NCBI RefSeq assembly: GCF_048260185.1
Contig: NZ_JBLXHB010000004.1
Span: forward strand, 88,622-152,621
Length of the DNA: 64,000 bases
Reading direction: 5' to 3'
Source of the DNA: Idiomarina sp.
GTDB lineage: Bacteria > Pseudomonadota > Gammaproteobacteria > Enterobacterales > Alteromonadaceae
This document shows positions 1,964 through 26,617 of the stretch, piece by piece (position 1 is the stretch's first letter; each line of letters opens with the position of its first letter). The notes beneath the pieces are model-generated. The model was not told the DNA's origin and did no database searches. It saw only the letters and a list, made by a program, of their open reading frames with translations. The position numbers were made by a program, and so were the translations under genes.

Positions 1964-2022
1964 TGTGAAGTGACAATATAGTTTGTACATTAAATAAAAA
2001 AATGACAATAAAGTTTGCACAC
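1964..2022 (+). repeat. Tn7-like left end with two putative TnsB-binding repeats
   Basis: The terminal repeat 1964-1991 contains AGTTTGTACAT. A second copy, ATAAAGTTTGCACAC, lies at 2007-2022. The same ATAAAGTTTGCAC core occurs inverted at the right end. Confidence 0.75.
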
Positions 2023-2129
2023 TGAGTGGAGAGTAACACTAACTTCTTTGTTGACTGTTAAGTGCCAGGAGCGGACCTTCAGTAACGCTGCGTTTACCGG
2101 CTTGTCTAGTGCAACGACTTGTTAAAAGT

Positions 2130-2843
2130 TTACCTAGAAGGGCCACCCCGATATGGGCTTGACTCATCATCTTCGGGTGATGGTTTGCTATTTTTAGGTT
2201 CAGGCGATTTACTAAGACTCAGTTTGTTCGAGAACTCAATAAGCTCAGCTACAGTTGAAAAAATTCTTAAGTCTACCCCATGTTCAGGGTCAAAAGTTAA
2301 ATGGACTCCATAAAAACTAGAATCCCCATCATCACCTGCGATATTTGATAGTTCGTTTATGTATGCCTCAAAACTCTCATTACTTACCCCAGCTTTAATA
2401 TCTAAGAAATCATCAACAAACTCCGGTATCCACCTTTCATTATTACCATCAAAATGCTTATTAAATAACGCGCAGACCGTAGGAAGGTATGTATCAATTT
2501 TCACCCTAAGCCTATTGTCTTTTGAGTTCTCAAGCCGCCAAGCAATGAAGTGAGCATTTAGTGAATTAGAAAGGTTAGCATCGCTTATGATGTTGCATAG
2601 TTTATTTCTTAATGGTTTTCGTGACTCTGATGATATTTCAGATTTAAACTCTTTAAATTCTATAAGTATATTTTTAGCATTAACCCCTGCAAAATAGTCG
2701 GCATATTTCCTATCTTGACTTCCATTAAATGCGCCGTAAGCATAGGGAAACTCAGCGCCAAATTTTCTACCTATCTTAAACTTTAAATGCTCAACAAATG
2801 CTTGCTGAACTTGAGCTTCACCTATTTTAGTTTTAGGCTCCAT
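2130..2843 (-). CDS. hypothetical protein with PD-(D/E)xK-like motif (possible nuclease-fold protein)
   Basis: 237-aa ORF. 'ADYFAG...NILIEFKEFK' gives a D...ExK arrangement. The C-terminal tail is low-complexity and acidic/Pro-rich. No confident family. Confidence 0.5.
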   Translation of the reverse strand: MEPKTKIGEAQVQQAFVEHLKFKIGRKFGAEFPYAYGAFNGSQDRKYADYFAGVNAKNILIEFKEFKSEISSESRKPLRNKLCNIISDANLSNSLNAHFIAWRLENSKDNRLRVKIDTYLPTVCALFNKHFDGNNERWIPEFVDDFLDIKAGVSNESFEAYINELSNIAGDDGDSSFYGVHLTFDPEHGVDLRIFSTVAELIEFSNKLSLSKSPEPKNSKPSPEDDESSPYRGGPSR

Positions 2844-3009
2844 ATATATCCCTATTTTCTGTAAGTTTAACGTCTAGCGTCACTTGCAAGCTAGACTACC
2901 TTGTAACGTCAGAAAGTCCAATGTCTGCTTTTCGCTCACAGCAGACTGTCAGGTTAGTGCCAGGAGCGGACGTTGACGTCGGCAGCAGAGGTGCGAGCTT
3001 GCGAGCATC

Positions 3010-3486
3010 CTACTGACTGCCTTTGTTAAGCGAGCTTCTTATCTCTTCCAACTCTAAATTCAGCTCTTCCAGTTTTCCTTCTTTGTCGATATCTGTATCA
3101 ATTGGTGAAGTTACGCTTGCCGCTTTAATGAAAAAATAAAATGCGCCAATGAAGCCAACAACTCCAAAAGTTGGGATGACGGACATGGTCACCAAACCTA
3201 GTGTAAGCCAGATCAATCCTTTGATGAGCTCACGATGTGCAGCATATATAAGAGCCGAGAAATATGTAGAACGTTCTGCACCTTCAGAAGTTAACGCCTT
3301 ATACTTAGTTACCTGATATATAAGGAGTCTCTTCTTAGAAACAAGCGATCGCTTAGCATACTTGGCGTTCAGTTTACCGTAAGCAAGTGGCGCATATTTC
3401 AAAATAAGCCAAAACAAAAAAGCCCCAACGACGCTTTGAAATACTGGCTTCCACCATTCATTAAAAATCTCTTGAATTTCTACCAA
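3010..3486 (-). CDS. hypothetical small membrane protein
   Basis: 158-aa ORF with 3-4 hydrophobic helices (VVGAFLFWLILKYAPLA; LIWLTLGLVTMSVIPTFGVVGFIGAFYFFI). Sits between attC-like elements. Confidence 0.55.
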   Translation of the reverse strand: MVEIQEIFNEWWKPVFQSVVGAFLFWLILKYAPLAYGKLNAKYAKRSLVSKKRLLIYQVTKYKALTSEGAERSTYFSALIYAAHRELIKGLIWLTLGLVTMSVIPTFGVVGFIGAFYFFIKAASVTSPIDTDIDKEGKLEELNLELEEIRSSLNKGSQ

Positions 3487-3506
3487 AGTACCTATCCTTA
3501 ATTTTC

Positions 3507-3577
3507 GCTTAACGCCGCGCTCTGCGGCAAATTTGGAACGCAGCGGAAAATTTGTCCGACAGCAGCGCCTTGTTACG
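3507..3577 (-). other. attC-like recombination site (~71 bp)
   Basis: Read on the gene strand, it begins 6 nt after the stop of 3582..4574 with ACGTAAC and ends with GTTAAGC, which fits GTTRRRY. The arms AAGGCGCTGCTGTCGGAC and GCCGCAGAGCGCGGC pair imperfectly, with two extra bases in the stop-proximal arm. Confidence 0.55.
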
Positions 3578-3581
3578 TTTT

Positions 3582-4574
3582 TTAGTACAGATCCACGCTA
3601 TCGATTTCGCATTCCGCACTACTTATTTTTGCGCTCGTGACCTCTTGATAAGACCCAAATGAAAAGTTGAAATTAAGAGTTTCGCTATCACTATCGTGAG
3701 CATAGAGATCGTGAGACTCATCTCCATAACTTGAGTCTGATTGAGTTGAATACGTGTTTCTACCCTTATATTCAATCTCAACTGTGCACTCGACTTCAAC
3801 GTCTAGGTATGCACCGCCGCTATAATCGGTGTTTACTTCATAGTTAAGCGAAACGTCACAATCATTATAATAATTACCAGAATAGCTTTCGTTACAATCA
3901 ATATCGCCCCCAGTAATTTCAACACAAACTTCAGCGTTTGTTTTGTACTCTGTATCGCAGTCGTCACCACTTACGCCCTGAGCTCTTCGACGCTGCATTT
4001 CAGCAATAGCGGCTTTTTCCAACTCAATTTGCCTTTGAAGCTCTTGCTGTGTCATAGCCTTGCATGAGCTTCCAACTTTCTTGAAACCTCGATTACATTT
4101 CCAGCCACTACCATAAATGTCGATACTCGCGTTTTCGGGAACTTGAACTTTTACACATTTATTGCCGAACTTGTAATAGCCCCTATTGCACTTCCAGCCA
4201 CTGCCGTAAACATCAATCCCCGCGTTTTCAGGAACTTGAACCTTTACACAGGTATTGCCTGATTTGTAATAGCCCCTATTGCACTTCCAGCCACTACCGT
4301 AAACATCAATGCCTGCGTTTTTAGGGACTTGAACCTCTACACAGGTGTTGCCTGATTTGTAATAGCCCCTATTACACTTCCAGCCACTGCCGTAAACATC
4401 AAGACCAGCATTTTCTGGTATTTGAACTTTTTCGCATTTATTGCCTGACTTGTAATATCCTCGATCACACTTCCAACCACTGCCGTATGGATTCTCTGAA
4501 GCATGCTCTGGAAGACTTTGAGACCAGGATAGAGACGCGAAGCACATGCAAAAAATTATTAATAATATTCTCAT
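3582..4574 (-). CDS. secreted Cys-rich tandem-repeat protein
   Basis: 330 aa with a signal peptide (MRILLIIFCMCFASLSWSQS). Carries about 4.7 tandem 31-aa repeats, YGSGWKCNRGYYKSGNxCVKVQVPENAGIDV, with 2 Cys each. A coiled-coil-like segment and an acidic Cys-containing C-terminal domain follow. Confidence 0.7.
   Translation of the reverse strand: MRILLIIFCMCFASLSWSQSLPEHASENPYGSGWKCDRGYYKSGNKCEKVQIPENAGLDVYGSGWKCNRGYYKSGNTCVEVQVPKNAGIDVYGSGWKCNRGYYKSGNTCVKVQVPENAGIDVYGSGWKCNRGYYKFGNKCVKVQVPENASIDIYGSGWKCNRGFKKVGSSCKAMTQQELQRQIELEKAAIAEMQRRRAQGVSGDDCDTEYKTNAEVCVEITGGDIDCNESYSGNYYNDCDVSLNYEVNTDYSGGAYLDVEVECTVEIEYKGRNTYSTQSDSSYGDESHDLYAHDSDSETLNFNFSFGSYQEVTSAKISSAECEIDSVDLY
4053..4487 (-). repeat. 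tandem 93-bp coding repeats (about 4.7 copies)
   Basis: CCACTGCCGTAAACATCAA-type strings recur with a 93-bp period (for example near 4199, 4292 and 4385). This matches the 31-aa protein repeat. Confidence 0.85.
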
Positions 4575-4588
4575 CTATGTCTCATTAA

Positions 4589-4689
4589 ACATAACGCCGT
4601 GTTAAGCGGCAAACAAAGGTTGGCTATAATTAGCGAAGAATGAGCGCAAGCCAACCTTTATGCGTCCGCCCTTAAATACTTTGTTATAT
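4589..4689 (-). other. attC-like recombination site (~101 bp)
   Basis: On the gene strand it starts directly after the stop of 4690..5286 (tga ATATAAC...) and ends GGCGTTATGT. Outer arms are AAAGTATTTAAGGGCGGACGC / GCCGCTTAACACGGC. A perfect inner stem AAAGGTTGGCT...AGCCAACCTTT is also present. Architecture matches the site at 3507-3577. Confidence 0.5.
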
Positions 4690-5286
4690 TCACTTATTAG
4701 GATTAAAACCAAGAACACCGATAAGAAAGCTATCGTTTAACTCACGATGAATACGGGAAACTTCATTATGAATTTTTTGTCCTTTAAGCTCTGCAATTGG
4801 CTTTTGTTTTAATAGGAAATCCATCACTTCAAACATATCTTTTAAGCAGGTTTTGTTTGAAATAAGCTTTGTCTTTTTGAAGTTATATATTTCCATATTT
4901 ATAGAAATAGGCAGCGCAGCAATTTGCAAATTTTTCTTTAAGAGCTCACTAGCGCCAGGAGAATTAAGAATGGAACATACAGTTTTATAGACACTTTCTA
5001 AGTTGTTTAAATATACATCAGCATCTTTTTCGGCTTTAAACTTGGAATCGCCCTCAACTTCTTCGAGGTTATCTTGCGTTACAAGAGCCTTAGTTGCGAA
5101 ATAGTATTGCATTACCGCAACAAACAACCTCTTTGTAGCCTCTCCGTACCTATTCCCGATAGTTAACTTAGCCGTTAAATAGGCAACTATTAGTGAAGCG
5201 ATGATTGAAGCTAAGACTGACAAATTAAATGCTTCCAATGATGAATTCTCCTGTGAATATAACATTTGTATATTGTGCGTGCGCAT
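4690..5286 (-). CDS. hypothetical protein with N-terminal transmembrane helix
   Basis: 198-aa ORF with the TM segment LSVLASIIASLIVAYLTA. The first 7 codons overlap a conserved non-coding block, so the start is more likely the second Met at 5265. Confidence 0.5.
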   Translation of the reverse strand: MRTHNIQMLYSQENSSLEAFNLSVLASIIASLIVAYLTAKLTIGNRYGEATKRLFVAVMQYYFATKALVTQDNLEEVEGDSKFKAEKDADVYLNNLESVYKTVCSILNSPGASELLKKNLQIAALPISINMEIYNFKKTKLISNKTCLKDMFEVMDFLLKQKPIAELKGQKIHNEVSRIHRELNDSFLIGVLGFNPNK

Positions 5287-5650
5287 TTAGAAGCTCGTCC
5301 AATTGCTAGTCTTCTGTTCTTGACTTACTGATCAAGCAAGCATTCCTGATTTGAAAGGTTCCGAGCTAGAAAAGGCAATTTGAGCATGCTCAGTTACACT
5401 CTATAGGGCTCACAATATCCAACCTTTATTTTTGTTATGTTATTGACATTAAACGACTTAAATACACAATACAACAAAGTGCGCAATATTTCCGAAGTGA
5501 AGTTGCCGTGTATCGCTAGCGACATCCACTCTTACTAATAACGGGACGTCTAGTCACTAGTTGGAGTAAGCTGAAAGTCAGAAGGTCTGTTTCTCGCTCG
5601 TTGCTGAACTTCGGTTTCGTGCCAACAGCGGACGTTGAGCTTCTCTTTCG
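5261..5650 (-). repeat. copy A of a ~470-nt conserved non-coding module; interrupted by IS3 and continuing at 6909-6950
   Basis: Block-wise homology to 9586-10050. Shared strings include TTTG(T/A)ATATTGTGCGTG, T(T/A)ATTGACA(T/C)TAAACGAC(T/C)TAAATAC, TGCCGT..ATCG.TAGC.ACAT and GTTGCTGAACTTCGGTTTCGTGCCAA. Stop codons occur in all frames. Confidence 0.7.
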
Positions 5651-5697
5651 TAGATTCCAATTTGGAATGCCCCCAGTATCATTGACACCCTGACGCC

Positions 5698-6504
5698 TCA
5701 AAATGAGGCTTGCTCAAACTGCTCGGGGCTGATGCCACCGAGGTGACTATGTCGCCGTTTCCGGTTGTAGAATACTTCAATGTAATCAAAAATGTCAGCT
5801 CGCGCTAATTCTCGCGTTTTATAGACCCGTTTTTTAACCCGCTCTTTCTTTAAACTACTAAAGAAAGACTCTGCAACGGCGTTATCCCAACAGTTAGCCC
5901 GACGACTCATGCTGGGCTCTAAGTTATTAGACTTACAAAACCGGAACCAATCATCGCTTCCGTATTGTGACCCCTGATCAGAATGCACTAATACTGAGGA
6001 GGTCGGTTTTCGACGCCACACAGCCATCAACAGAGCGTCTAGAACAATTTCTTTAGCGAGACTAGGCTTCATCGACCATCCAACAATATTACGGGCGTAA
6101 AGATCCATGACAACCGCAAGAAAAAGCCAGCCCTGCCAAGTCCGGATATAGGTAATATCAGTTACCCAGGCTTGATTAGGTCGTGCCACGGTGAATTCCC
6201 GCTGTAATAGGTTAGGAGTCACAATAGCTGGCCGGCCGGCTCCGTATCGAAATCTCTTATATCCCCTTGAGGCCTTGATATTATGTGCATTCATAATTTT
6301 TAAAACACGATTTTTACCAACCGACTCGCCGAGCTCGCACAAATCCAAATGAATGCGCCGATAGCCGTAAACACCGCAACTGGCGCTATGCGAATCTTTT
6401 ATTAAGGGGAGCAACCGACGATCTTCCAAGGCACGATCAGATAACGGTTTATCGATCCAGAAATAGAAACCTGCACGCGCAACCTCAAGAACTCGACACA
6501 TCAA
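5698..6504 (-). CDS. IS3-family transposase OrfB (DDE/rve), expressed as an OrfAB fusion by -1 frameshift
   Basis: The -1 frame continues from the slippery site as KKGRKVLCKPARVKYQFINEHRRIHSIALMCRVLEV..., so the OrfB frame is open upstream of the listed Met. An rve-type DDE core is present (WVTDITYI...HSDQGSQY...ESFFSSLKKE). Confidence 0.85.
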   Translation of the reverse strand: MMCRVLEVARAGFYFWIDKPLSDRALEDRRLLPLIKDSHSASCGVYGYRRIHLDLCELGESVGKNRVLKIMNAHNIKASRGYKRFRYGAGRPAIVTPNLLQREFTVARPNQAWVTDITYIRTWQGWLFLAVVMDLYARNIVGWSMKPSLAKEIVLDALLMAVWRRKPTSSVLVHSDQGSQYGSDDWFRFCKSNNLEPSMSRRANCWDNAVAESFFSSLKKERVKKRVYKTRELARADIFDYIEVFYNRKRRHSHLGGISPEQFEQASF

Positions 6505-6548
6505 AGCAATCGAATGAATGCGCCGATGCTCATTGATGAACTGGTACT

Positions 6549-6854
6549 TTACTCTGGCTGGCTTGCAAAGTACCTTGCGGCCTTTTTTAGAATGTCCCGC
6601 TCTTCCTCAGTACGTTTTAGGTCTGAACGTAGTTTCAGTATTTCTTTTTTAGCCTCTATCAGTTCATCGTCCTTTTGCTTGGAGGGGGTCGGGTTGGCTG
6701 CTTTTACCCACTTATAGAGACTGTGTTGAGATACCCCCAAGTTCGCAGAAACTTCAGCAACGGTGTACCCTCGTTCTATCACTTGACGGACTGCTTCATC
6801 CTTAAATTCTGGACTGTATCGTTGGTTGTTCATAAACTTTCCTCCTATGCTCAA
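6549..6854 (-). CDS. IS3-family transposase OrfA (HTH)
   Basis: 101 aa. YSPEFKDEAVRQVIERGYTVAEVSANLGVSQHSLYKWVK is a typical IS3 OrfA HTH. A leucine-zipper-like C-terminus ends at the frameshift window. Confidence 0.85.
   Translation of the reverse strand: MSIGGKFMNNQRYSPEFKDEAVRQVIERGYTVAEVSANLGVSQHSLYKWVKAANPTPSKQKDDELIEAKKEILKLRSDLKRTEEERDILKKAARYFASQPE
6582..6588 (-). promoter_or_regulatory. programmed -1 ribosomal frameshift heptamer A_AAA_AAG
   Basis: On the gene strand the orfA frame reads ...ATT CTA AAA AAG GCC.... The canonical IS3-family slippery heptamer is in the correct phase. Confidence 0.7.
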
Positions 6855-7045
6855 ATAATAGTCAGGAATTGTCTATGATTCTCGGTCCACTCCAATTGGA
6901 ATGGTTCAGTGTCTAGTAAACTAGTACCGACTCAGTTAATCTTGACAGCCTAGACTATGAGCATAACAAGAGCTGTATAGTTAATTGGAAAAATAGGACG
7001 CAAGTTTTCATTCAGTGGGTATTAAATACTAAAGGATTTATAGAC

Positions 7046-7405
7046 ATGCTATGCCATCAAACTAAACCTTTTATCTTAAATTTTGCAACCAAGCGAGAAC
7101 TCTCACAGTCTCCGGAAATTGGTGGTTTTTACTCGGAACAAGCTGATATGTGGTTCGATGCAGAGTCCATGATGCCGGCAATTGATTCATTAGCGTTCAA
7201 CAGTGCGGAGCTAAATACAAAGACGAAAGTCGATGTTGAGAGAGACGATGAAAGTCCATACGCCCTCGAAATGATGACTAAGACCAAGGTGCATGAAGAG
7301 AGTGACGATACCGATTTAAGATCCTGCATCTTGAATAGTTTACTAACGAAAACTGACGTGGCGCAAGAAAAGGACGATAACTCGATGAGTCCTTATGACC
7401 TATGA
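7046..7405 (+). CDS. putative graspetide (omega-ester/amide RiPP) precursor with three core repeats
   Basis: 119 aa. The leader contains KPFILNF, resembling the microviridin-type PFFARFL recognition motif. Three repeats are present: TKTKVDVERDDES, TKTKVHEESDDTD and TKTDVAQEKDDNS (nt 7217-7384). They are rich in Thr/Lys donors and Asp/Glu acceptors. The stop overlaps the ATP-grasp start (ATGA). Confidence 0.6.
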   Translation: MLCHQTKPFILNFATKRELSQSPEIGGFYSEQADMWFDAESMMPAIDSLAFNSAELNTKTKVDVERDDESPYALEMMTKTKVHEESDDTDLRSCILNSLLTKTDVAQEKDDNSMSPYDL

Positions 7406-8349
7406 TTCTTTTGGTCACGAATAAGAGGGATATTACGACCGACTATATTGTCCGTGAATTGCGTAAAAGAGAAGTCGACTACTATCGGTTAAATACAGAG
7501 TCATTAGCGAATTACGAATGCTCTATTGGCTATGAAAACATGGATGATTGGCGGATTGGGTACATTAACGGCAGCCAGGTTCAATCTGCCTATTTTCGAA
7601 GACCTTCCTCCCCTGAGTATACAAACTCATCAGAGACCAGTGAAAATGAATACATTGCATCAGAATGGTTGGCTTTTTTAAAAAGTATTTACGCTCGACT
7701 CGAAGGTAAGTGGTTCAACTCACCAGTATCGATAGCACTTGCAGAAGATAAGCCGAAGCAATTGCTCTTAGCGAAGGAAGCGCGCTTCAGAGTACCCAAC
7801 GGTTTAATTACTAACGTTGCTAACGATATTATTCAGAAAACAGGGAGCAATGGGCTTATCATTAAGCCTGTAAGGCAAGGTCTAATCGAAGGTAAAGATG
7901 ACAAGGTGATTTTTACCAGCAGAATCCCTGAAGTAAACACTGCACATGCTTCAGCTATTTCCCAGGTTCCCTCAATTTTTCAACAAGAAATCATTAAGAA
8001 GTTCGATGTAAGAGTTACTGTGGTTGGAAAGCAGATTTTTCCAGTCGCAATTTGGTCGCAGGATGCAGAGCAAACGAGAGTAGATTGGCGTAAAGGAGGG
8101 AGGATAGATTTGCGTCATCAAGTTATCGAACTACCGACAGGCGTAGCTGCATCATGTATTGAGCTAACATCAAAGTTAAATTTGAAGTTTGGCGCTATTG
8201 ACCTGATATGTGATCAAGAAGATAACTATTGGTTTTTGGAAATAAATCCAAACGGACAATGGGCGTGGATTGAGAATCAGACAAATTTACCCATCGCTTC
8301 TACAATCGTAGATGAGTTAGTTGCCTGTCGGAGAAAACATGAACTTTGA
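7402..8349 (+). CDS. ATP-grasp ligase, microviridin MdnB/MdnC-like (graspetide macrocyclase)
   Basis: 315 aa. The N-terminus MILLVTNKRDITTDYIVRELRKREVDYYRLNTE matches the MvdD/MdnC-type pre-ATP-grasp domain. The C-terminus GAIDLICDQEDNYWFLEINPNGQWAW is the ATP-grasp Mg/ATP-binding motif. Translationally coupled to the precursor. Confidence 0.75.
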   Translation: MILLVTNKRDITTDYIVRELRKREVDYYRLNTESLANYECSIGYENMDDWRIGYINGSQVQSAYFRRPSSPEYTNSSETSENEYIASEWLAFLKSIYARLEGKWFNSPVSIALAEDKPKQLLLAKEARFRVPNGLITNVANDIIQKTGSNGLIIKPVRQGLIEGKDDKVIFTSRIPEVNTAHASAISQVPSIFQQEIIKKFDVRVTVVGKQIFPVAIWSQDAEQTRVDWRKGGRIDLRHQVIELPTGVAASCIELTSKLNLKFGAIDLICDQEDNYWFLEINPNGQWAWIENQTNLPIASTIVDELVACRRKHEL

Positions 8350-8992
8350 TTTATTATGGCCAAGACTATCAGGTAAATCAGATGACGAATCATTAAAGAG
8401 AGATCTTGAATTAATAAAGAAAGCTGATCCCGGTGACTTTGTTGATGTCGCGCTAGGCGAAGCTCGGAGGCTTTACGATCAAGAGCAACAACGAAGGTCC
8501 TCTGCTGACAGTAAGGGTGGACTATATCTTGGTGTCGCTACAGCTTTCCTCGCGTCACTAATCACATTGTCTCCATTAGCAATCGATATTATTGGGAGAT
8601 CAGAATCTGGTCTGTATTCGGCACTGTCGTGGCTAATGGTTATAACGATGGGCATATCAGCTATTGTTGCGTTTCGTTGTATTCTCTGGGCAAAACACGC
8701 ATTGAAAGTAGCAGCCTTTCGAACTATGAGCTGGAGAGATTTACTCAATGTTGGTGATGAAAAAGTTGAGCTGACCTTATTTCGTGACACTCTGAAATGT
8801 CTGCGTCACAATTATGTGGCGACGAATGAGAAAGTGACGAATGTGAAAATGGCGGAAGCACTTTTAAAAAGTGCGTGGTTTTGGCTAATCCTAAGCCTTC
8901 TTGTAAGACTTTTTTATCACCTAATAGAGGGCAGCCCGAGTGGCTCTGAAACTATCATCAATGTAATTAGCATCTGTTCTGAGATGGCGTGA
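8339..8992 (+). CDS. hypothetical membrane protein, third gene of the ATP-grasp operon
   Basis: The ORF track starts at a TTG at 8321; the ATG at 8339 (MNFDLLWPRL...) overlaps the ATP-grasp stop by 11 nt. It has 3-4 TM helices (LYLGVATAFLASLITLSPLAI; WLMVITMGISAIVAFRCILWA; AWFWLILSLLVRLFY). Confidence 0.5.
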   Translation: MNFDLLWPRLSGKSDDESLKRDLELIKKADPGDFVDVALGEARRLYDQEQQRRSSADSKGGLYLGVATAFLASLITLSPLAIDIIGRSESGLYSALSWLMVITMGISAIVAFRCILWAKHALKVAAFRTMSWRDLLNVGDEKVELTLFRDTLKCLRHNYVATNEKVTNVKMAEALLKSAWFWLILSLLVRLFYHLIEGSPSGSETIINVISICSEMA

Positions 8993-9130
8993 ATGGACTT
9001 CCCAGATTTTGCTAGACAAATTTAACCTTTACAATGTAACTAAAATGAGAGGTGTTTATGAGAAAAGGAAAACGTTGCCTCGTCTAAATATACATACGTA
9101 CTTTTACTACGGTCCTTGTCAGTTGCTGAC

Positions 9131-9568
9131 TCAAGCTTCATTTTCAAACCACAAGTATCCTAAAAACCTTGTCGAATCGTTATGAATAGCAAGGAATAGT
9201 TCTGACGCCTCTTTCTCAATTTTTAACAAACGTTCGTCAAGAGAAGCAGCTTGCCATTCTTGATAACCATTGTGTGCATCTATACAGGATGCAATAGCTT
9301 TATGACTTAGGAAGTTTCGTTCATCTTTGAACTTGTTGAGGCGTTTAACCAACTCTTGATTATCGGAAAACTTCTTAAATTCAGTAATTAGCCTTTCGAG
9401 AGAGTGGTTTTGAAAATCGTCGCCGGACATTCCAAAGGGCATACGGTCACCCAGACGTTTTTTTATGAGGGCGACAGCGTGAGCTAAATAGAGCTTCAAC
9501 TCCATCTCTACCATCTGACATCCTGATAGCGCTCTCGAAACCTTGAGGAAAAACTCGTCTTGCTCCAT
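9131..9568 (-). CDS. HEPN-domain protein (paralog 1)
   Basis: 145 aa, all-helical pattern. Rx4H motif RNFLSH. Shares the block L(E)RL...F.K......EL..RLNK.+..RN...H with the 12505..12933 product. Confidence 0.55.
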   Translation of the reverse strand: MEQDEFFLKVSRALSGCQMVEMELKLYLAHAVALIKKRLGDRMPFGMSGDDFQNHSLERLITEFKKFSDNQELVKRLNKFKDERNFLSHKAIASCIDAHNGYQEWQAASLDERLLKIEKEASELFLAIHNDSTRFLGYLWFENEA

Positions 9569-9585
9569 ATGCCCTCTAAACAGCT

Positions 9586-10050
9586 AACCTTTGAATATTG
9601 TGCGTGTGTTCTTCGTAACTCGTTCCATTTTTAGTTGCCGCATATTAAGTTGCTGCTCAAATGAGCATTCTGAGAGGTTTTGAGTTAACAAAAATCAACA
9701 TGAGCAAGCTAGCTTACCTTTTAAGGGGCGTACAATACTAAATTTTAGTTTTTCTTTATGTAATTGACACTAAACGACCTAAATACGCAAAACAACAACA
9801 AAACGTGCAATGTTGATGAGGCAAGCGTGCCGTACATCGTTAGCAACATTCCCACTTAACAATAGCAGGCCGGTTAATCTCTAAATTGAAGTAGAAAAAA
9901 GTCTTAAAAAGGCTAATGATTCGCTCTTCGTTTGTTGCTGAACTTCGGTTTCGTGCCAAGAGAGGACTTTAAATTTTACTCTCCGCGCCTCCATCTGCGA
10001 CAACTCAGGCTTTAGAGAACTAGTGGCGATTCAGTCATATTAGTGAGCCC
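9586..10050 (-). repeat. copy B (uninterrupted) of the ~470-nt conserved non-coding module
   Basis: Homologous block-by-block to 5261-5650 + 6909-6950. It lies between the stop of 10084..10797 and the start of 9131..9568. Confidence 0.7.
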
Positions 10051-10083
10051 TGCGTTCCTGTGCTTCCTCCTTGATAAGATACG

Positions 10084-10797
10084 TTACTCATTTATGGAGG
10101 AATCAATCCTCTGTACCCAAAGGTTTTTAAATTTATGAGCACTGATAACGTGTTTTATATTATCCATCAGCGTATAACCGATCGCAGAAAAAATAGCTCC
10201 AAGCATAAGTAAAGGCACCAGAATACTGTCTAAAAAGTGCTCTCCTTCAATCGAAAATAACTCCCTTATCAACAAACTAAAAAAACCGGACAGAGAGAAG
10301 GAAATACAAATAAGGGCACCAACTAAAAATGTGAGACTAAGCCTTTGGAGAGAGATTGAAGCTTTTTTAATACTCCAAACTTTATTAGACTTGGCTGTTG
10401 GAGCTATTAAAGCTTGCCGCCCCCTTGCGTAAGCCTCAACAGTCGTCAGAGGAAAACGTAAACGTGAAACTTCATCCTCCCCTAGTTCATCGACAAAAAC
10501 ATATCTGGCGTCATAGGCCTCCCAAATTTGCTCTTTTAGAGATCGTATCAACGCAGTATCAGAACTACGGATTATAAAATCATTGATTTCTTCCGAGTCT
10601 GCACTTTTCATAGCTTCCAATGAGGCTATTCGAAATTTATGATGTTCACGCTTTTTCTTTTTCGGATCCCAATCCGCAAGTAATTTTCGAAATCTGAAGA
10701 AAGCAAAGACTGCTATTGAGGTTCCAAGGACTATTATTGCAACATCTGAACCAATGAAATCAGTTTCTTTTATCAAGTTTAGTAATGTATTCAACAA
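10084..10797 (-). CDS. hypothetical multi-pass membrane protein
   Basis: 237 aa. One N-terminal TM (VAIIVLGTSIAVFAFF), a soluble middle region, and 2-3 C-terminal TMs (LTFLVGALICISFSLSGFFSLLI; LVPLLMLGAIFSAIGYTL). Confidence 0.5.
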   Translation of the reverse strand: MLNTLLNLIKETDFIGSDVAIIVLGTSIAVFAFFRFRKLLADWDPKKKKREHHKFRIASLEAMKSADSEEINDFIIRSSDTALIRSLKEQIWEAYDARYVFVDELGEDEVSRLRFPLTTVEAYARGRQALIAPTAKSNKVWSIKKASISLQRLSLTFLVGALICISFSLSGFFSLLIRELFSIEGEHFLDSILVPLLMLGAIFSAIGYTLMDNIKHVISAHKFKNLWVQRIDSSINE

Positions 10798-11322
10798 CCT
10801 ATTCCCTTTGAAGCTGGAGTGATTTAGCTCGCTTATATCTATTTACATTAGTAGAGTATTTTAATAAATATTCTACAATCGTTTAATAAGGTTAGATACT
10901 CAATTCACTTAAATTTGAGGGGGCCCTGACAGTTTCCTCGTCAAAAAATAACGAACACACATTGCGTTGCACTGAAAGATTTAACTCACAGCTCCTAGCG
11001 GCTTGAAGGTTCGATGCCAATAGCAGAGATTGGTATTTTTACGAATAACAAATTTGAACTGGTTCTTTGGTGAGCCGTGTCTAAAAAACTCCTCACCGCG
11101 TTAAGCATTTTACTGTCATTGAAAAAGTGTAAATCGCAAAAAAGTAAGGGTGGCTTACCATGCGGACACTCCAATTTCATATCAGGTGGCAAGAGAGCAG
11201 AAAAATTATAAAGCAATTTAGAATCAATAAGTTATAGAGGACTCTATGTTGCACATTGACTTCTTGTGTTAATTTCTCGTTAACAAAGCTAAGCTATTTT
11301 TTTATTTCTCTTTATTTTTTTC

Positions 11323-11895
11323 ATGTCAACCTCTATCATGTGCGGTGAACACAACTTTTCCTTTTATGTTAATTTTCTTATGAGCATTATGAATAAAGAG
11401 AGCATTTCAAGAATACTTGAAGCCTTCGCTTACATAGCGGAGCGCGCTCCTGCGCACAAGAAAAATATGTATAACGTGCTAAAGGTATTCTACCTTGCTG
11501 ATAAGCTCCATATGGAGCGTTATGGTCGCTTTATCTTTGATGAAAGTTACTCGGCAATGGAAAAAGGACCAGTTCCGTCAACAGCTTATGATCTGATTAA
11601 AAATATCGGAAAGGGTAAAGAGCTACCATTCTCAGTTGAGTCGCCAGTGAAGTTAGGTTCAAATTATATTGTTACTGCAAAAAGACAAGCAGATGAAGAT
11701 CTTTTTAGCGGTTCTGATCTGCTATGCATGGACGAAGTTATTCAGCTAAGTGAGAATGAAGATTTAGGTGACCTTAGTCACGACGAGGCATGGAAAAGGG
11801 CAGGACGCAATAACTTCATGCCTGTTGAAGCTATCCTATCAACGCTTCAAAATAGCAAAGCACTATTAGAGCTTCACCATAATAGACACCCTTGA
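11323..11895 (+). CDS. Panacea/DUF4065 (SocA-like) antitoxin-domain protein
   Basis: NVLKVFYLADKLHMERYGRFIFDESYSAMEKGPVPSTAYDLIKN matches the Panacea core pattern (KL.K..Y.AD..H....GR.I....Y.A...GPVP...Y). The likely true start is an internal Met at 11380 or 11389. Confidence 0.7.
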   Translation: MSTSIMCGEHNFSFYVNFLMSIMNKESISRILEAFAYIAERAPAHKKNMYNVLKVFYLADKLHMERYGRFIFDESYSAMEKGPVPSTAYDLIKNIGKGKELPFSVESPVKLGSNYIVTAKRQADEDLFSGSDLLCMDEVIQLSENEDLGDLSHDEAWKRAGRNNFMPVEAILSTLQNSKALLELHHNRHP

Positions 11896-11937
11896 TCGTA
11901 ATTAGGTGCCAGGGAAGAGTACGAGCAAGGGAAATAA

Positions 11938-12408
11938 ATGCCAGCCAGTCAAAGTCCATTTGCCAAATTAATAGAAAATAATCTGAGAGTAGGCGCGGTA
12001 CTTCACAAGCACTGCGATTTCACGACTCCACCCAAAAATAAATTCTTGGTTGTAGCATCACTTGAGCCTAGGTTACTAGTGTTATTGATTAACTCGGAAA
12101 TAAATCAGTTTTATTTTCAGGAAGGATTAGATCACTTCCATGTTCCTTTACCCGAAGCTGAGCACAAATTTTTAGCACATGATTCTTATGCAAGTTGCAT
12201 CGAAGCTCATACTGCATTTGATTGCAGCCAAATTAGGCAAGAAGTTCTTAATGACTATGTGAATGTTTTTAAAGGTTGGCTGACTGATGAATGCTTGGAA
12301 GCGGTATACCACGCAGTTAAAGGCAATAACATGATTCGTAAAGGTCATCAAAAGGAAATAATCGCTTCTATCGAAGGCCAGCTAACACATCTTCACACCG
12401 CCTTTTAG
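11938..12408 (+). CDS. hypothetical protein; candidate cognate toxin of the Panacea antitoxin
   Basis: 156-aa ORF 42 nt downstream of the Panacea gene on the same strand. No recognisable motif. Assigned from gene order only. Confidence 0.4.
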   Translation: MPASQSPFAKLIENNLRVGAVLHKHCDFTTPPKNKFLVVASLEPRLLVLLINSEINQFYFQEGLDHFHVPLPEAEHKFLAHDSYASCIEAHTAFDCSQIRQEVLNDYVNVFKGWLTDECLEAVYHAVKGNNMIRKGHQKEIIASIEGQLTHLHTAF

Positions 12409-12504
12409 GTTCCAAATTTCAACGTAATCTCCTCTCAATCGGATAAATAGGCGTCCGCCGGAGGGTCTTCCGGCCTAGAACGAACTGAAACAATTAGTTA
12501 GACC

Positions 12505-12933
12505 CTATTTTCCGGCAAAACCCGAGTGTAAGGCTTTCGTTTCTTCGACGACCAGGTCCAGACACTCTGTCAGTTCGTCTTCAAGGTAGAAAAACTCTCC
12601 ATGCTTTTTCTGTACGACCTCCTTGTCATATATAGTGCCCATGACGATGATTAGCGACTCATGCGCCACATGGTTTCTTTGAGCTCTAAGCTTATTCAGA
12701 CGTTCCAGTAACTCCCGATTGCCATTGAGCTTTCCAAAAACATTCAGCAGCCTCTCAAGAGGGAAATTCTCAACATCGGCTACTGAATAATCGAAATGCA
12801 TACGTCCATTCAGAGACAGGCCGATAAGCTCATAGGCTCTCCCGATGTACAGCTTCAGTGTCAACTCCAGTAACTGGAAATTACTCAGAATCCGGAGTGT
12901 CATAGCTTTGTAGGATTCGCGAACATCTGCCAT
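12505..12933 (-). CDS. HEPN-domain protein (paralog 2)
   Basis: 142 aa with Rx4H motif RNHVAH. Alignable by eye with 9131..9568 (PLERLLNVFGKLNGNRELLERLNKLRAQRNHVAH versus SLERLITEFKKFSDNQELVKRLNKFKDERNFLSH). Confidence 0.55.
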   Translation of the reverse strand: MADVRESYKAMTLRILSNFQLLELTLKLYIGRAYELIGLSLNGRMHFDYSVADVENFPLERLLNVFGKLNGNRELLERLNKLRAQRNHVAHESLIIVMGTIYDKEVVQKKHGEFFYLEDELTECLDLVVEETKALHSGFAGK

Positions 12934-12949
12934 TCTTGTGTCTAACCCC

Positions 12950-13459
12950 TCAATCAGCCAACGCGTTAGAGGTCGGCTGCATTGACTTATTAACTCTTAT
13001 TGCTTTGATAGTCGTAACCATTGTTTTGGCGGCTTCTTTTAACTTACTACGCTTTGATACGTAGTTTTCATCTTTATTTGATGTGGTCTCTAACTCGACA
13101 AATAACAATGATTTGGTAGCTAAATATGTTTCAGGAAAGAACTTTCTATTGGACTCAAGAAAAGCCATGCCGGATATTACGATCCCTCTAAACTCTCCGC
13201 GAGATGTGTAATCAAATTTCTCTAGCTTCGGCCATGACTCTAGCAATTTATCTGCTTCAAGCCTTGCATTCATTAATGCTCGATTCTCTGCCTCAAGATT
13301 ATGTGTTTCTACCCATGAATACGCAGCAACAACTGTGCTAATAACTGAAATTAATAATAACGCATAAGTTAGAGGCTTTTCTTTGTGCTTATAAAGCTGG
13401 AAAGCCAGGCCGAATAAGCTCGCTAGCGACGCAATTGTTGTAAAAATAGCTATACCCAT
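12950..13459 (-). CDS. hypothetical 2-TM / coiled-coil protein, upstream partner of HEPN paralog 2
   Basis: I place the start at MGIAIFTTIASLASLFGLAF (ATG 13459-13457), preceded by AAGGAG. The longer tracked ORF (to 13594) would read through an attC-like site and an IS end. The stop lies 16 nt before the HEPN start. Confidence 0.5.
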   Translation of the reverse strand: MGIAIFTTIASLASLFGLAFQLYKHKEKPLTYALLLISVISTVVAAYSWVETHNLEAENRALMNARLEADKLLESWPKLEKFDYTSRGEFRGIVISGMAFLESNRKFFPETYLATKSLLFVELETTSNKDENYVSKRSKLKEAAKTMVTTIKAIRVNKSMQPTSNALAD

Positions 13460-13483
13460 GCAAGCTCCTTGAGGGTAAAGAAA

Positions 13484-13535
13484 ATTAAAGCCGCGCTCTG
13501 CGGGAAGTTTGTCCGACAGCAACGCTTTGTTAAAA
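13484..13535 (-). other. attC-like site, short and partly degenerate (~52 bp)
   Basis: The arms GCCGCGCTCTGCGG / CCGACAGCAACGCTTTGTTA are near-identical to those of the 3507-3577 site. The GTTRRRY box is degenerate (CTTTAAT on the gene strand). Confidence 0.4.
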
Positions 13536-13579
13536 GTTGTCACGGCTAATCCACGAAGCCACAGCGAACAAATAGGCAA

Positions 13580-13712
13580 TGATACTGGGGGCATTCCACT
13601 CCGTAACGCTTCTCGTACTCTACTGGTGATAGTAAATTATTGTAACCATGTTTTTGTTTGCTGTTATAAAACATCTCGATGTAATCGAAGATATGACTTT
13701 GGTAAGTAAGGT
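13580..13712 (-). pseudogene. IS3-family transposase C-terminal remnant plus IS end
   Basis: The reverse strand translates to ...SHIFDYIEMFYNSKQKHGYNNLLSPVEYEKRY.... This is homologous to the C-terminus of the intact OrfB ([29 protein letters not shown]). Stops lie immediately upstream, and it ends ...CCCCCAGTATCA. Confidence 0.7.
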
Positions 13713-13888
13713 CAGGCTTAGGGAGAAATCCTATTCAATACTTTTAAACGATTGAGAAGTAAAATTTTTCACGAAAGCCTTATAATTCAATACTGACGTT
13801 AGAACAAGCGCCATGTAAACCTCTTTCTAATCGTCACAGGTAGCACATATTGCTTCAAAGAGGTGTTCGGCTAGCTCGCTCAAACTAC

Positions 13889-16800
13889 TTATTTAACGTT
13901 AGCCTCAGTGGATAACCTGGGACGCAAATCAAGAAGATGTACATGAATATAGGTATCACTTCCCAGAGCCTGTTGAACTCTGTCAGACTCAGCAATAAGC
14001 AACGATAACAACTGATCTGCTTTGATCTTGTGTTTCTCAACTGGATGATGCCATTGGCGATCTTTCGTAAGAGTTATCAGCAAAGCTCCAGCCCTACAGT
14101 GTTCAGCCGCCATATATTTTCTGACCAATTGCCCTTCAATTGTATCTAGCAGCTCTTTCGCAGAGCGATTTGCATTACCCAGCTTGAGTTCAATCACAGC
14201 TTCATGTTTCGACAGAACAGAACGCAGACGTATATCGGTTTCCTTCTCGTCAGCCGTTACCGCCTCTTGGTCGACAGTGTAAAGTGAATTTGCGGCGCGC
14301 TTAAGTTCTCGCGCAATTACTCGACGCATTATCTTCTCATCTGATATTAACGCCCAAGCTTCTCTCGGTGAATCGTCGTGTAGTAAAAGTTCATCAAGAT
14401 CAGATAACCGATCCTTCAATAACGCAAACATGGCTTCATTCGTTGAAGCTGGAGCTTCACCAGTTCTATCAAGATCTACTGCTTGAGCTTCATCAAATGT
14501 ATCAGCATCGATCTCTAGTGCCCAATTCTCTGCTGCCACAGCCAAAATGCGATCCTTGAAATGAGCGCACAAAGGATCTGCAGCCATTTCTATCTTGGCG
14601 GCCAAGCCCTCATTTCCTCTCGCGTCAAGCAATGCGCTTACAATGCTATTGCGCGCCTGTTCTGCGTTGTCTCTAGTGTCGGGTGAATAGGACCCTTCGT
14701 GGTGCGCATCGTCCTGTATTCGAACGTGGCGATAGGCCAAACGAAGAAGCCTGAGCAGTAATTGCGGCGTTAATCGTTCGTCACGCAAACTAATTCCGTC
14801 TTGGTCATTCCCAAAGAGTTTGGCTAGCCATGTCACAGCGTCCGATCGCTTAGAAGGTTCAACTCTCTTAACTAGGTCAGTTAGCCGTTCGATCCCCTCC
14901 TGCGGTTCAATCTGCATTAAGGTGGACAACCAAACAAGGCGCATCGAAAACGGCAATTGTTGCTCCAACCTCTGGAGTGCCTGTTCTTGAAGTTTCTTAA
15001 TTTCCGCAGCATTGCCATGCTTAATGATAATCCGTGTGGCTTGCCGAACCCTTCCGGCCATTCCGCTAGTGTCATCGCCACCATTAATATCCTCCCCACC
15101 GTCATCTAGCCAGGACTCCAGTCGCGGTAAAAATAAACAGGCAACCCTTTCAGGCGCATATTCAACTACTTGAAGTAGATTCAAAGAGCCTTGTTCACTT
15201 GACGACCGGTTCAGCTGCCACGAAAACTCATTTCCAAGCGTCCTGTCCACAGCTTTTGGATGTGTGTCTACGAGGTCCTCGAGCCACTTAGGCAGGCCGT
15301 TTAGTTCAATTGGAGCGTAACGCGCGGCTAGCTCAGCTTCGGCATCGCTGAGTTTAGCTTCCCAGCCTGGGGCCTCCGCTTCAGCGTAGATCGCGGCCAG
15401 ACCAAGTTGCCAACGTACAAGAAATGTATTGCGCTCGCCTTCGGACCTTTCGCTGGGAAAAGTTGGATGGTCATCACGCCAGATCTTCATCAGCACCCGG
15501 CGAAGCTTGTCGGCCGTGTCTTGATTGAATTGCTCTTCAATGAATCGCCGGTTCCAGCCTGATGCTCTACTGTCTGCACCATCATGACTCATAGCGCGCC
15601 ACAAGTTCCAAGCTGTGTTCCAGCTTTGCTCCGTCGAAAATGCTTTTTCAGGCTGGTTGGCAACTTCTCGCCAGAACTGAATCCAGCTCGCGCGGCTCTT
15701 GGCCTTACGCCGCTCTTCCTGCTTCTTTTTTTCAGCCTGCTCCTTTTCCCAATGAAGATGCTCTTTTTCGTATTTCGATGGCTTCAGCCAGTCGTCAAGT
15801 CTTTGCACGAATGAAGGTTCATCCACTATGAGGGACCTAAGTCCCTCATAGTGTTTTCTCCTTGTATCACGATCCGGCGACAGACGGATGGCTGCCTCCA
15901 AGAGCATTGCGCGTTCATCCGCATCCCGGGTCGTGTCTCCAAGCGCTTCGCTCACCCAAGTCAGATCCCGGTCCGGTCTTAGCTGAACCGGTCCATCGTG
16001 GATAGTGAGTTCTGCGAGCCGTCTCCAAGGATCTTTGATTTCATGGAGCGACTGCAGCAAAGCGTCCTCAACCCAGAAAAGACGCTCATTGTCCTCTGCT
16101 TTCAGATTGATGAGCTGTTTGCGAAGTGATTTGATCGATTCGTCGTTATAATGGTCTTGGTGGTGTAATCGCAATGCGACTACACTAGCATGAAGCCACT
16201 GATCGTCTTGGCTTATATCCAAGCCGCGTTTACATGTTGCTGCGAGTGCTTCACTGAGATGTGCCCGATCACTGGTAATATGCGGCCACTCTTTTCGCCA
16301 TGTAAGCCCCTCTGAGACAAGCGCAAGGAAGCCGTTACGAAGTTCCTCAAGGTCAGGGAACTCAAGAGACGACCTTGCTATCAGAATTGGAAGTTGCCAA
16401 TTAAAGTCGCCTATATTTCGCTTCCCTTGCTTTATCCATCTAAGGGTCCGACAAAGCTGCTCAACCGACATGTACTTTGGAAAAAGGCGTAGTATGGCAC
16501 CGCATGCTACTCTATCAGGCCAGAGATAATCACCATCAGCTATACAGACAGAAATGCTTTCTAATCTCTCGTCAGCGAGTGCGACTAACGCGTCAATAGC
16601 CATTATACGTTCGACCGCAGTTGCTGAAATGTCCTGAGTTATATCGAATACGATATCTGCACAAGCTTCTATGCGACCAGCTTCTATAAGGCTGATGAGA
16701 ACTTCTCGCACATCCGGATTCTCTACCCCACAACGCCAAATCCTTTCAACTTCTTTTGCCAGCCCATTCGACGCAAATCGATGGACCTGAATGTGAGGAA

Positions 16801-18193: not shown

Positions 18194-18280
18194 GCTTTTA
18201 ATGCCACCTATCAGGTTGTCTGTCTATCTTTGAATAAACGAGATACCCAGAGATTGAATAGCGATTAGCTTACTAGAAAC

Positions 18281-18532
18281 TCATTCGCCCCTTTTAAGCT
18301 CACTCATTTTGACTCGGATCTTATCAAAGCAGTCCTCACAAAAATCATAGCTGAATACTTCACCATCATGCTTTGAGCCATAACCGAATTCAGCAGTTAA
18401 CCGGGCAAACGAAGAGAATTCATCTAATCTGTCCAGGTTGTTCTTTTGAAATTCGGGTACCACGCTTTGACCACAAATGTCGCACTTAATATCGACAACG
18501 ACCTTCGTAGTCTTTTGGGCTTTCTTTCTCAT
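18281..18532 (-). CDS. small zinc-ribbon protein
   Basis: 83 aa with the paired motifs CDICGQ...CEDCFDK. Lies 12 nt downstream of the 272-aa gene and 87 nt upstream of the NACHT gene. Confidence 0.45.
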   Translation of the reverse strand: MRKKAQKTTKVVVDIKCDICGQSVVPEFQKNNLDRLDEFSSFARLTAEFGYGSKHDGEVFSYDFCEDCFDKIRVKMSELKRGE

Positions 18533-18544
18533 GGTGTTACCTTT

Positions 18545-19363
18545 TTACTTATTGATTTGTTCATAGCCATCGCCAACTTTTATAAATATCCTTCTTTTTA
18601 CCTCAAAGGGTTTATCAATAAGCGCCTGAACCGGCACAATATCGCTTATGTCGGAAATATCACCAATGTTCAGTTCAAGTGCTCCTTTTGAATTTAAGCA
18701 CTGCTTGTGAACGCCAAAAGAAATCCTAAATTCCATCTGCCATGAATATTTACAATCTTTTGTATACAAGCCGATGGGACCAGAATAATTCTCTAATGGT
18801 TTATAATCGACCAAGCCATAGCCGTCATCTAAAAGCTTAGAGCTAAATGTACCAGGTAGCTTTTTTATTGCTTTGTTTATCCGGTATGAAAACTCGCTCG
18901 GCTTGTTTATAAGTAAAACATGCGAACCGAAATCGAGAAATCGCTTATCAAAGTGTATTTTTCCATCAATTTCATTGGGGATTAAGCCATCTTCATTGTC
19001 AGCAAAAGCCCCCATGCAAAATAGCATTGTATTTTCAGGTCTTGGAAAGTGGGCAGTAAGAACTGCATCAGAGCCTAAATCAACTTCCTCATCATTAACT
19101 TTGATAGATAACGTGGCGTAACCCGAGGGGGTATTTCCTGCTCGCAATATTCCATATACTTTCTCTAACCCATCGGCTCGTAAAGCCAGACTCTCCTCAC
19201 CTTCTAAATTTGAAAAGTACTCAAGACTATTCATGTAGAGCAGGCCTTTCTGCATCTTCAAAAGCCTGTCAATTGAGGCTACTTTGAAAAGTAACCAAAA
19301 GTCCTTCCTGGGTGGCTTCGCGATAAAATTGTGAGGTGTATTTGCAGTTTTCATATGACCCAA
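18545..19363 (-). CDS. hypothetical protein (272 aa), no family recognised
   Basis: Long uninterrupted ORF, co-directional with its defence-type neighbours. The N-terminal region LLFKVASIDRLLKMQKGLLYMNSLEYFSNLEGEE loosely resembles DUF2971-like openings, but I cannot assign it. Confidence 0.5.
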   Translation of the reverse strand: MGHMKTANTPHNFIAKPPRKDFWLLFKVASIDRLLKMQKGLLYMNSLEYFSNLEGEESLALRADGLEKVYGILRAGNTPSGYATLSIKVNDEEVDLGSDAVLTAHFPRPENTMLFCMGAFADNEDGLIPNEIDGKIHFDKRFLDFGSHVLLINKPSEFSYRINKAIKKLPGTFSSKLLDDGYGLVDYKPLENYSGPIGLYTKDCKYSWQMEFRISFGVHKQCLNSKGALELNIGDISDISDIVPVQALIDKPFEVKRRIFIKVGDGYEQINK

Positions 19364-19528
19364 AATCTAGATTAAAACCCAGTTTCATCCTATCAGCTCG
19401 TAGGTTTTTAGCTAAGATTTTTAATGGGTCAAGAGGGACTTTTTCTGCCCCGTTATCACGGACGGTTAAAAATCGGGGTAGAACCCCAGTTTGCTGAAAT
19501 TTTAGGGAAAATCTAAATCGACACGAGT

Positions 19529-20389: not shown

Positions 20390-20395
20390 AATTTG

Positions 20396-21955: not shown

Positions 21956-22220
21956 TAAAAGGACCGTAGCAGTTATTGCTTAATTGTTTGATACTGTATT
22001 TGTAAAGAAGCTTGATAGCAAACAAGCTTCTGGGAAAGCTTTATTACGCTCTTGAGGATTACCTTGGCTCTACTCGTAGCGCATGAGTTAGTGTTTTTTC
22101 TGTGGCCTGACGACTGAATCGGCACTAGCTCACTAGACACTCAGTAGCCGTTTTTGGAGTGTTTAGATAATTCAAAAGCAGTAAAAATCAACAATCGGGC
22201 TAAGGTTGAAGTTTAATCCA

Positions 22221-25139: not shown

Positions 25140-25183
25140 GATCAGTCCACAAATTAATTTTGTTGTCTATATTTTAGACTACT

Positions 25184-26611: not shown

Positions 26612-26617
26612 TGTGCC

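Follow-up and report, generated by a model that had tools for sequence, protein, structure and literature searches.

Six attC sites without an integrase: a probable integron cassette array in the left-end cargo of a Tn7-like transposon of Idiomarina sp.

The DNA analyzed here is a 64,000-nucleotide stretch of contig NZ_JBLXHB010000004.1 of Idiomarina sp., referred to as the window. It carries a Tn7-like transposon with a series of hairpin-forming sites towards its left end. The original prediction, made from the letters alone, described three of these sites as attC-like and placed them in the cargo of a Tn7-like element. Six such sites were found. They are very likely integron attC sites bounding short cassettes read from a single strand, forming an integrase-less array (a CALIN, or attC cluster in which an integron-integrase is lacking) that is the left-end cargo of the transposon. 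The sites were scored with three covariance models. R1 is the model of a 72-nt attC family, called family A, and R2 and R3 are two broadenings of it with other sites found in the same arrays. The transposon and the sites are the following.

1964..29678, no strand: Tn7-like transposon, 27,715 bp, with a 5-bp target duplication (TTACC) at 1959-1963 and 29679-29683
2080..2127, plus: attC-a, the last site of the array; R3 29.0 bits, E 2e-4; R2 25.8 bits
2971..3031, plus: attC-b, overlapping the final 22 nt of the open reading frame (ORF) at 3010-3486; R3 33.9 bits, E 2e-5
3507..3578, plus: attC-c (site 1 of the original prediction), a full member of the 72-nt family A; R1 98 bits, R3 85 bits
4589..4689, plus: attC-d (site 2), 101 nt, with a long terminal stem-loop; R3 38.2 bits, E 2e-6; R2 33.3 bits
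12470..12497, plus: candidate half attC, GAACTGAAAC-AATTA-GTTAGAC, read from the sequence directly past the stop of ORF 12505-12933
12940..12995, plus: attC-e, overlapping the end of ORF 12950-13459; R3 26.0 bits, E 1e-3; R2 24.9 bits
13483..13535, plus: attC-f (site 3); R1 42.8 bits, R3 31.5 bits

R3 was run on both strands of the whole 64 kb with the filters off. Six matches were obtained, with E-values from 2e-17 to 1e-3, all on the plus strand and all within 2080-13535; the next best stood at E=0.49. The same six plus-strand matches are given by R1, R2 and R3, and nothing else in the 64 kb lies below E ~0.1-0.5. A chance origin of the six matches is excluded. In a control, a class 1 integron (intI1-dfrA1-aadA1) of a Salmonella plasmid, R3 finds attC_aadA1 at exactly 9001-9060 (45.7 bits) and attC_dfrA1 at 8110-8204 (45.5 bits). 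Both matches are on the intI1 coding strand, with nothing else in 18 kb below E=0.9. R3 thus behaves as a general attC model. Over 40 loci, the 150 aligned model matches keep to a single strand within each array and are spaced at a median of 802 bp. All three predicted sites are matched by the surrogate model on one strand and lie within 1 nt of their proposed coordinates (3507-3578, 4589-4689 and 13483-13535). Only their number has to be raised to at least six, as those at 2080-2127, 2971-3031 and 12940-12995 had been overlooked. The hairpins are not scattered over unrelated genes, the outcome that would have spoken against attC sites, as none occurs in the window's 50 kb of core genome. Rfam searches of positions 1700-14000, at gathering and permissive thresholds, found nothing. 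A scan for AAC...GTT hairpins by folding energy and architecture rules was dropped for lack of specificity: site 1 alone passed, and core genes rich in GC scored above the sites.

Folded as single-stranded DNA, attC-c and attC-d have the layout of attC sites. A short R-box stem (TAAC/GTTA) is followed by an unpaired spacer of 2-3 nt on both sides, then by a long imperfect stem with single-base bulges all on one arm and by a terminal loop. The fold of attC-d has a z-score of -2.4. That of attC-b (z -2.0) is a stem with three single-base bulges, and every bulge in attC-b, attC-c and attC-d is located on the 3' arm of the plus strand. Both attC-a and attC-f fold poorly on their own. The latter is a family-A site with its loop deleted, its arms being 88-89% identical to those of attC-c (direct repeats D8 and D10), and it is the site nearest the expected intI/attI position. 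The hairpin architecture ascribed to all three predicted sites was therefore recovered in sites 1 and 2, whereas site 3 is a short, loop-deleted version.

The boxes of attC-a (CAGTAAC and GTTAAAA), attC-c (GCTTAAC and GTTACGT) and attC-d (ACATAAC and GTTATAT) keep the core triplets AAC...GTT. These triplets are altered in attC-b, whose cleavage box CGTTGAC has GAC in place of AAC, and in attC-f, with a degenerate AATTAAA (AAA) instead of ..TTAAC. In attC-e, the top-strand R' box is a perfect GTTAGAC and the R'' box is degenerate (ATT for GTT on the plus strand). Each ORF stop is either within a site or separated from it by 0-3 nt. Both attC-a and attC-c lie 3 nt past a stop (of ORFs 2130-2843 and 3582-4574, respectively), attC-d abuts the stop of ORF 4690-5286, and attC-f has no upstream ORF. 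A ..TAAC box beside a stop codon, proposed for all three predicted sites, is present at sites 1 and 2 (ORF stops at 3582 and 4690) and has no meaning for site 3, where the ORF is missing. The spacings between sites are 891, 536, 1082 and 543 bp, plus one gap of 8.35 kb.

The unpaired bases had been considered non-canonical, which was the one reservation of the original prediction. In an alignment with the control, the first bulge of the family is the canonical T, matching in position the extrahelical T of attC_aadA1. The third bulge, a C, aligns with the extrahelical G of attC_aadA1, and an extra A is specific to the family. The bulge pattern is the consensus of a widespread attC family present beside intI genes, and the reservation is resolved. 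The half attC at 12470-12497 closely resembles the R''-L'' arm of attC_aadA1. No model scores it, and a partner arm was searched for in the whole window and not found. It is probably a truncated attC at a breakpoint of the array.

Family A was scanned in one genome per species, using the core common to sites 1 and 3 as the query. This 72-nt element is more than 90% identical across at least 119 loci/species. Among its hosts are Halomonas, Idiomarina, Marinobacter, Pseudoalteromonas, Shewanella, Pseudomonas, Aeromonas, several Betaproteobacteria and assorted metagenome-assembled genomes (MAGs). Similarity breaks off precisely at ..TAAC and GTTA.., beyond which the copies have unrelated sequences; this is the signature of cassette boundaries. 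In an alignment of 93 distinct copies (A1), the pairing of the loop-proximal stem is kept by compensatory changes; at one stem pair, A-T is swapped for T-A, G-C or C-G in 16 sequences. A tblastn search with IntI1 revealed IntI homologues, 39-58% identical to it, in eight fetched loci. Each of the eight has its sites on the intI coding strand and on the upstream side of intI. With the modelled strand taken as the attC bottom strand, this layout is the canonical one. By this geometry, the plus strand of the window is the predicted bottom (recombinogenic) strand, the cassette genes run along the minus strand, and the place predicted for intI lies right of 13535. A full-text literature search for the attC core sequence gave no match.

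Family A was also observed on MAG contigs labelled Bacteroidales, Actinomycetota, Cyanobacteria, Peribacteria, Flavobacteriales and Peptococcaceae (loci L098, L069, L061, L029, L013 and L036), which reflects either binning errors or a very wide spread of cassettes. Six genomes (L109, at 1481-2256, L008, L034, L056, L071 and L072) carry a sequence starting with GTGTACGCCC that breaks into the family-A attC after ...TTGT. The L109 insert matches Rfam models of a group II intron (D1-D4 and domain V). Class C introns specific to attC are known to target TTGT/T on the bottom strand. The recurrent TTGT/ junction suggests that these are attC-targeting class C introns. Another insertion (...TTTGATACTCATTGAGCC...), shared by L006, L092 and L096, is located at the same attC box, at the right edge of the family-A site, and may be an attC-specific insertion sequence (IS).

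The cassette ORFs of the window are short and all on the minus strand.

2130..2843, minus: cassette ORF, 237 aa, no family match
3010..3486, minus: cassette ORF, 158 aa, no family match
3582..4574, minus: cassette ORF, 330 aa, with an N-terminal signal-like segment and EGF_MSP1-like repeats (Pfam PF12946)
4690..5286, minus: cassette ORF, 198 aa, no family match, with a 375-nt non-coding leader before the ORF
12505..12933, minus: cassette ORF, 142 aa, a paralogue of ORF 9131-9568 (43% identity), followed by the half attC
12950..13459, minus: cassette ORF, 169 aa, taken to start at the in-frame ATG after attC-f, no family match

One of these cassettes has a counterpart in a complete integron. 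In a Poriferihabitaceae MAG of a sponge symbiont (L100), a homologue of ORF 3582-4574 is the first gene after a 328-aa IntI. The two are 64% identical over 310 aa (tblastn), and the DNA is 70% identical up to the attC. The L100 cassette also ends in a family-A attC, and both cassettes (3507-4588 in the window) start with G/TTATGT. A search for the same cassettes beside intI in other genomes, suggested together with the original prediction, is thus positive. ORF 3582-4574 contains four tandem 93-bp repeats (4087-4551), the identity of which drops from 87% to 61% along the run. They encode 31-aa cysteine-rich EGF_MSP1-like modules, and the same repeat architecture is present in the L100 homologue. 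An exact-protein look-up for this ORF returned no recorded match. The N-terminus of ORF 12950-13459 looks hydrophobic, as judged by eye.

Two further elements were noticed at the cassettes. The motif GTCCGCTSYTGGCAC, GTGCCA(A/G)(C/G)AG(C/A)GGAC, is located at the very start (in the top-strand sense) of four cassette-like units. Copies lie at 2064-2078, 2959-2973, 5621-5635 and 9955-9969 on the plus strand and at 1906-1920 on the minus strand of the window, and at 2732 in L009. The motif directly abuts attC-a and attC-b. A hairpin is formed by the one copy lying in the chromosomal flank, 35-60 bp beyond the left end of the transposon. A novel functional element associated with cassettes, for instance a binding site or a regulatory signal, is one conceivable role of the motif. 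The second element is a non-coding leader of ~370 nt. The leaders at 5287-5662 and 9569-9995 align with a mean column identity of ~79%, and the ORFs downstream (4690-5286 and 9131-9568) are unrelated. Both carry a promoter-like site on the plus strand (TTGACA-16-CACAAT, 5443-5470), facing away from the ORFs, and they may mark a small RNA or a common regulatory module.

The transposon that carries the array is well delimited. Its ends, TGTGAAGTGACAATATAGTTTGTACA (from 1964) and TGTGAAATGATAATTTAGTTTGCACGC (29678-29652, minus), match each other, and the motif AGTTTGCAC is repeated at both. It is inserted directly past the stop codon of a yhiN/HI0933-like gene (29683-30864, minus). The transposition genes, 23574..29606 on the minus strand, are the following.

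28722..29606, minus: tnsA
26618..28735, minus: tnsB
25184..26611, minus: tnsC
23574..25139, minus: tnsD/tniQ

Pfam matches for these genes are Tn7_TnsA-like_N, AAA_22/TniB, TnsD and TniQ, and the TnsB matches Tn7 TnsB (PDB 7PIK) with an E-value of 7e-46. The element is classified as Tn7-like by TnsA/B/C together with TnsD/TniQ, by TGT... ends with repeated, putative TnsB-binding motifs and by the 5-bp duplication. The proposed Tn7-like element thus proved correct, with matching ends, a duplication and all four of TnsA, TnsB, TnsC and TnsD. The six model matches, the L100 cassette and the ends and genes of the transposon together support the placement of attC sites without an integrase in its cargo.

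No IntI-like sequence was detected in the window by tblastn with IntI1 and the L100 IntI (searched to E=50, best E 0.2), in agreement with the absence of an integrase in the original prediction. Both the IS3 copy and the IS remnant that it had mentioned are real.

5663..6891, minus: intact IS3-family element inside the array, with orfA (6549-6854), orfB (5698-6504) and a 3-bp duplication (ATT)
13577..13701, no strand: IS debris at the intI-proximal edge of the array, identified by inverted repeat I2 and by tblastn with orfB

The IS3 copy has Pfam matches to HTH_Tnp_1 and rve. The debris comprises the terminal repeat of this IS3, present as a perfect inverted copy of 22 nt (13577-13598), and a 31-aa remnant of the C-terminus of a different IS3-family OrfB (13609-13701, minus; 45% identity, E 1e-7). 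It sits exactly where the geometry puts intI/attI. The locus is therefore not a complete integron: intI is missing, neither attI nor the Pc promoter was identified, and the place where they would be expected is taken up by IS debris. A CALIN is characterized by two or more attC sites that share a strand, lie within 4 kb of each other and have no integron integrase nearby. Under the 4-kb clustering rule, the sites form two clusters, one of four sites (2080-4689) and one of two (12940-13535), with 8.35 kb between them.

The following history is proposed. The array most likely derives from a complete integron. Its intI/attI end would have been located just to the right of 13535 and would have been lost in a rearrangement involving IS3-family elements; an IS-mediated deletion of intI/attI is plausible. 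Several sites would have decayed afterwards. An integron integrase would be expected to cleave the plus strand, the folding bottom strand, in the 5'-..AAC box. As no integrase is encoded in the element, excision and movement of the cassettes would only occur with IntI supplied in trans. Otherwise, the cassettes would travel passively with the transposon.

Several points weigh against this interpretation of the locus. The scores come from surrogate models that stand in for the attC model of IntegronFinder. These models were seeded from the core of sites 1 and 3, and there is thus some circularity in the high scores of this pair; attC-a, attC-b, attC-d and attC-e were not used as seeds, and the class 1 integron control is independent. 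The site attC-a is short and weakly structured, and its minimum free energy fold does not give the stem. With three of the six core triplets degenerate and attC-a barely folding, recombination competence may not be general. The array is not continuous, as 8.35 kb in its interior (4690-12939) contain no attC and have genes on both strands. No remnant or pseudogene of intI is visible in the window, so that the loss of an integrase is something we infer. To the left of the array, the window includes only 2 kb, located outside the transposon.

The 8.35-kb gap contains the IS3, a plus-strand block of three genes with an ATP-grasp protein, a SocA/Panacea pair and other small ORFs. The pair (11323-12408, plus) is formed by a SocA/Panacea-domain protein and a 156-aa partner, in the orientation opposite to the cassettes, and is likely a toxin-antitoxin module. 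Two ways of filling the gap with sites were rejected. A candidate attC at 9958-10087 and a site reconstructed across the IS3 insertion point gave no attC fold and no model score. An attC split by a 5.5-kb insertion, with arms near 6898 and at 12470-12490, was abandoned because a whole-window duplex search did not rank the partner.

Among other histories, the one that holds up best, although it is considered distinctly less probable than its negation, is that the array never had an integrase of its own. The cassettes would have been inserted at secondary sites by an IntI encoded elsewhere in the genome, or the transposon would have captured just the distal part of a chromosomal array, and the IS debris would be incidental. 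In the survey of Cury et al. 2016, 95% of CALINs have no nearby intI pseudogene, and secondary-site integration and rearrangement are among the origins listed. Likewise, no intI remnant is detectable here, and the last attC is only ~50 nt from the left-end repeats of the transposon. What speaks for a lost integrase instead is that IS3-family fragments lie precisely at the intI-proximal edge and that the proximal attC is truncated and degenerate, as would fit a deletion running into the array. Loss in situ and an integrase that was never present cannot be separated by these data.

A little less probable still is that the array is a detached part of a complete, working integron, with intI elsewhere on the chromosome and active shuffling in trans. 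About half of the CALINs in Cury et al. 2016 are in replicons that also encode IntI, and cassette exchange was proposed for them. The intact AAC/GTT boxes and good structure of attC-c and attC-d would suit such a use, whereas the decayed core triplets of three of the six sites suggest relaxed selection. It is also conceivable, but rather unlikely, that the array is not a dead relic but a working, trans-mobilizable store of cassettes ferried between hosts by Tn7-like elements. For such a store, the near-invariance of family A in at least 119 species would indicate that the cassettes belong to a single pool of very broad reach and recent mixing. The recurrence of the motif GTCCGCTSYTGGCAC at cassette starts is the second observation in favour of it. 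Finally, the hairpins resemble repetitive extragenic palindromic (REP) repeats or intrinsic terminators in being GC-rich imperfect palindromes just 3' of ORFs with modest fold z-scores (-1.4 to -2.4), but a species-specific repeat or terminator without a role in recombination is very improbable, given their absence from the core genome of the window, the many orders that share the family with its sharp AAC/GTT limits, its presence beside intI in eight loci, the recovery of textbook attC sites by a model derived from it, and the lack both of a T-run at the sites and of an enrichment of terminator-like sites in the region.

With the array taken as integrase-less attC cargo, the remaining cargo of the transposon lies between it and the tns genes and comprises antiphage genes.

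13889..18193, minus: HyoA
19529..20389, minus: partner gene of the PDC-M01A/B pair
20396..21955, minus: PtuA-like ATPase gene of the PDC-M01A/B pair

This cargo extends over 13889..21955. HyoA is an antiphage NACHT protein (NCBIfam NF058534, 1590 bits for a cut-off of 1200), and an exact-protein look-up returned no recorded match for it. The PDC-M01A/B pair was identified by PADLOC with E-values of 3e-205 and 4e-98. In Oceanisphaera pacifica (L058, 1-2174), a PDC-M01 pair of 40-42% identity lies directly after a family-A attC, in cassette orientation. A relic cassette was considered for the PDC-M01 pair of the window and rejected, since an upstream attC was looked for and none was found.

In the flanks, the genes at 604-1740 (an AsnC-type regulator and LysE) are chromosomal. 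Assembly GCA_025933435.1 (L120) encodes a protein identical to the redoxin at 30864-31355 and has a yhiN-type gene at the same position. There, the yhiN-type gene is followed by a 320-aa gene and an acyltransferase gene, and not by one with a TnsA-type Pfam match; the Tn7-like element is apparently absent from this yhiN site. An L31 ribosomal-protein leader (Rfam RF03157, 54.8 bits) lies at 47779-47829 on the minus strand and assigns the host to the Gammaproteobacteria.

CALINs were defined with IntegronFinder by Cury et al. 2016 as at least two attC sites without intI, clustered at 4 kb. The array resembles them in having a few attC sites on one strand, no nearby intI, cassettes of unknown function and an associated IS; no cassette is an antibiotic-resistance gene. 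It differs from them in that the 4-kb rule splits it into two CALINs.

Benler et al. 2021 (PMC8649781) reported integrons, either intact or partial, in 10% of Tn7-like transposons. Like the class 2 integron of Tn7 and the integrons of Tn7-like elements, the cassette array described here is cargo of a TnsABCD transposon, located beside its left end and accompanied by defence genes. In comparison, Tn7 has kept an interrupted intI2, while no intI is present here. The cassettes are environmental ORFs and not dfrA1-sat2-aadA1, and the attachment site is yhiN and not glmS. The orientation is also reversed relative to Tn7: in the window, it is the last cassette that adjoins the left end, and the side on which intI is presumed lost faces the tns genes. 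A literature search combining Tn7-like transposon, CALIN and attC gave no match.

Sedentary chromosomal integrons of marine or saline Gammaproteobacteria, among them the fetched arrays of Pseudoalteromonas, Marinomonas, Halomonas and Idiomarina, share with this array the attC family or close relatives of it, the spacing and cassettes of unknown function. One cassette also occurs in L100, a complete integron. In contrast to the short, integrase-less and transposon-borne array of the window, those integrons are located on chromosomes, and an IntI homologue is present in eight fetched loci. Ghaly et al. 2021 reported that attC types group by environment and not by phylogeny, and this clustering fits the distribution of family A. 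The near-invariant attC type across marine and saline taxa, the attC-targeting group II introns and the cassette-start motif are possibly worth a look by specialists. The current understanding is unchanged, CALINs having been described in 2016 and partial integrons in Tn7-like cargo in 2021. To these, the locus adds one more well-delimited case, in which integrase-less cassettes and antiphage genes are combined on a yhiN-targeting Tn7-like transposon, and it illustrates how a cassette pool can move between genomes without an integrase of its own.

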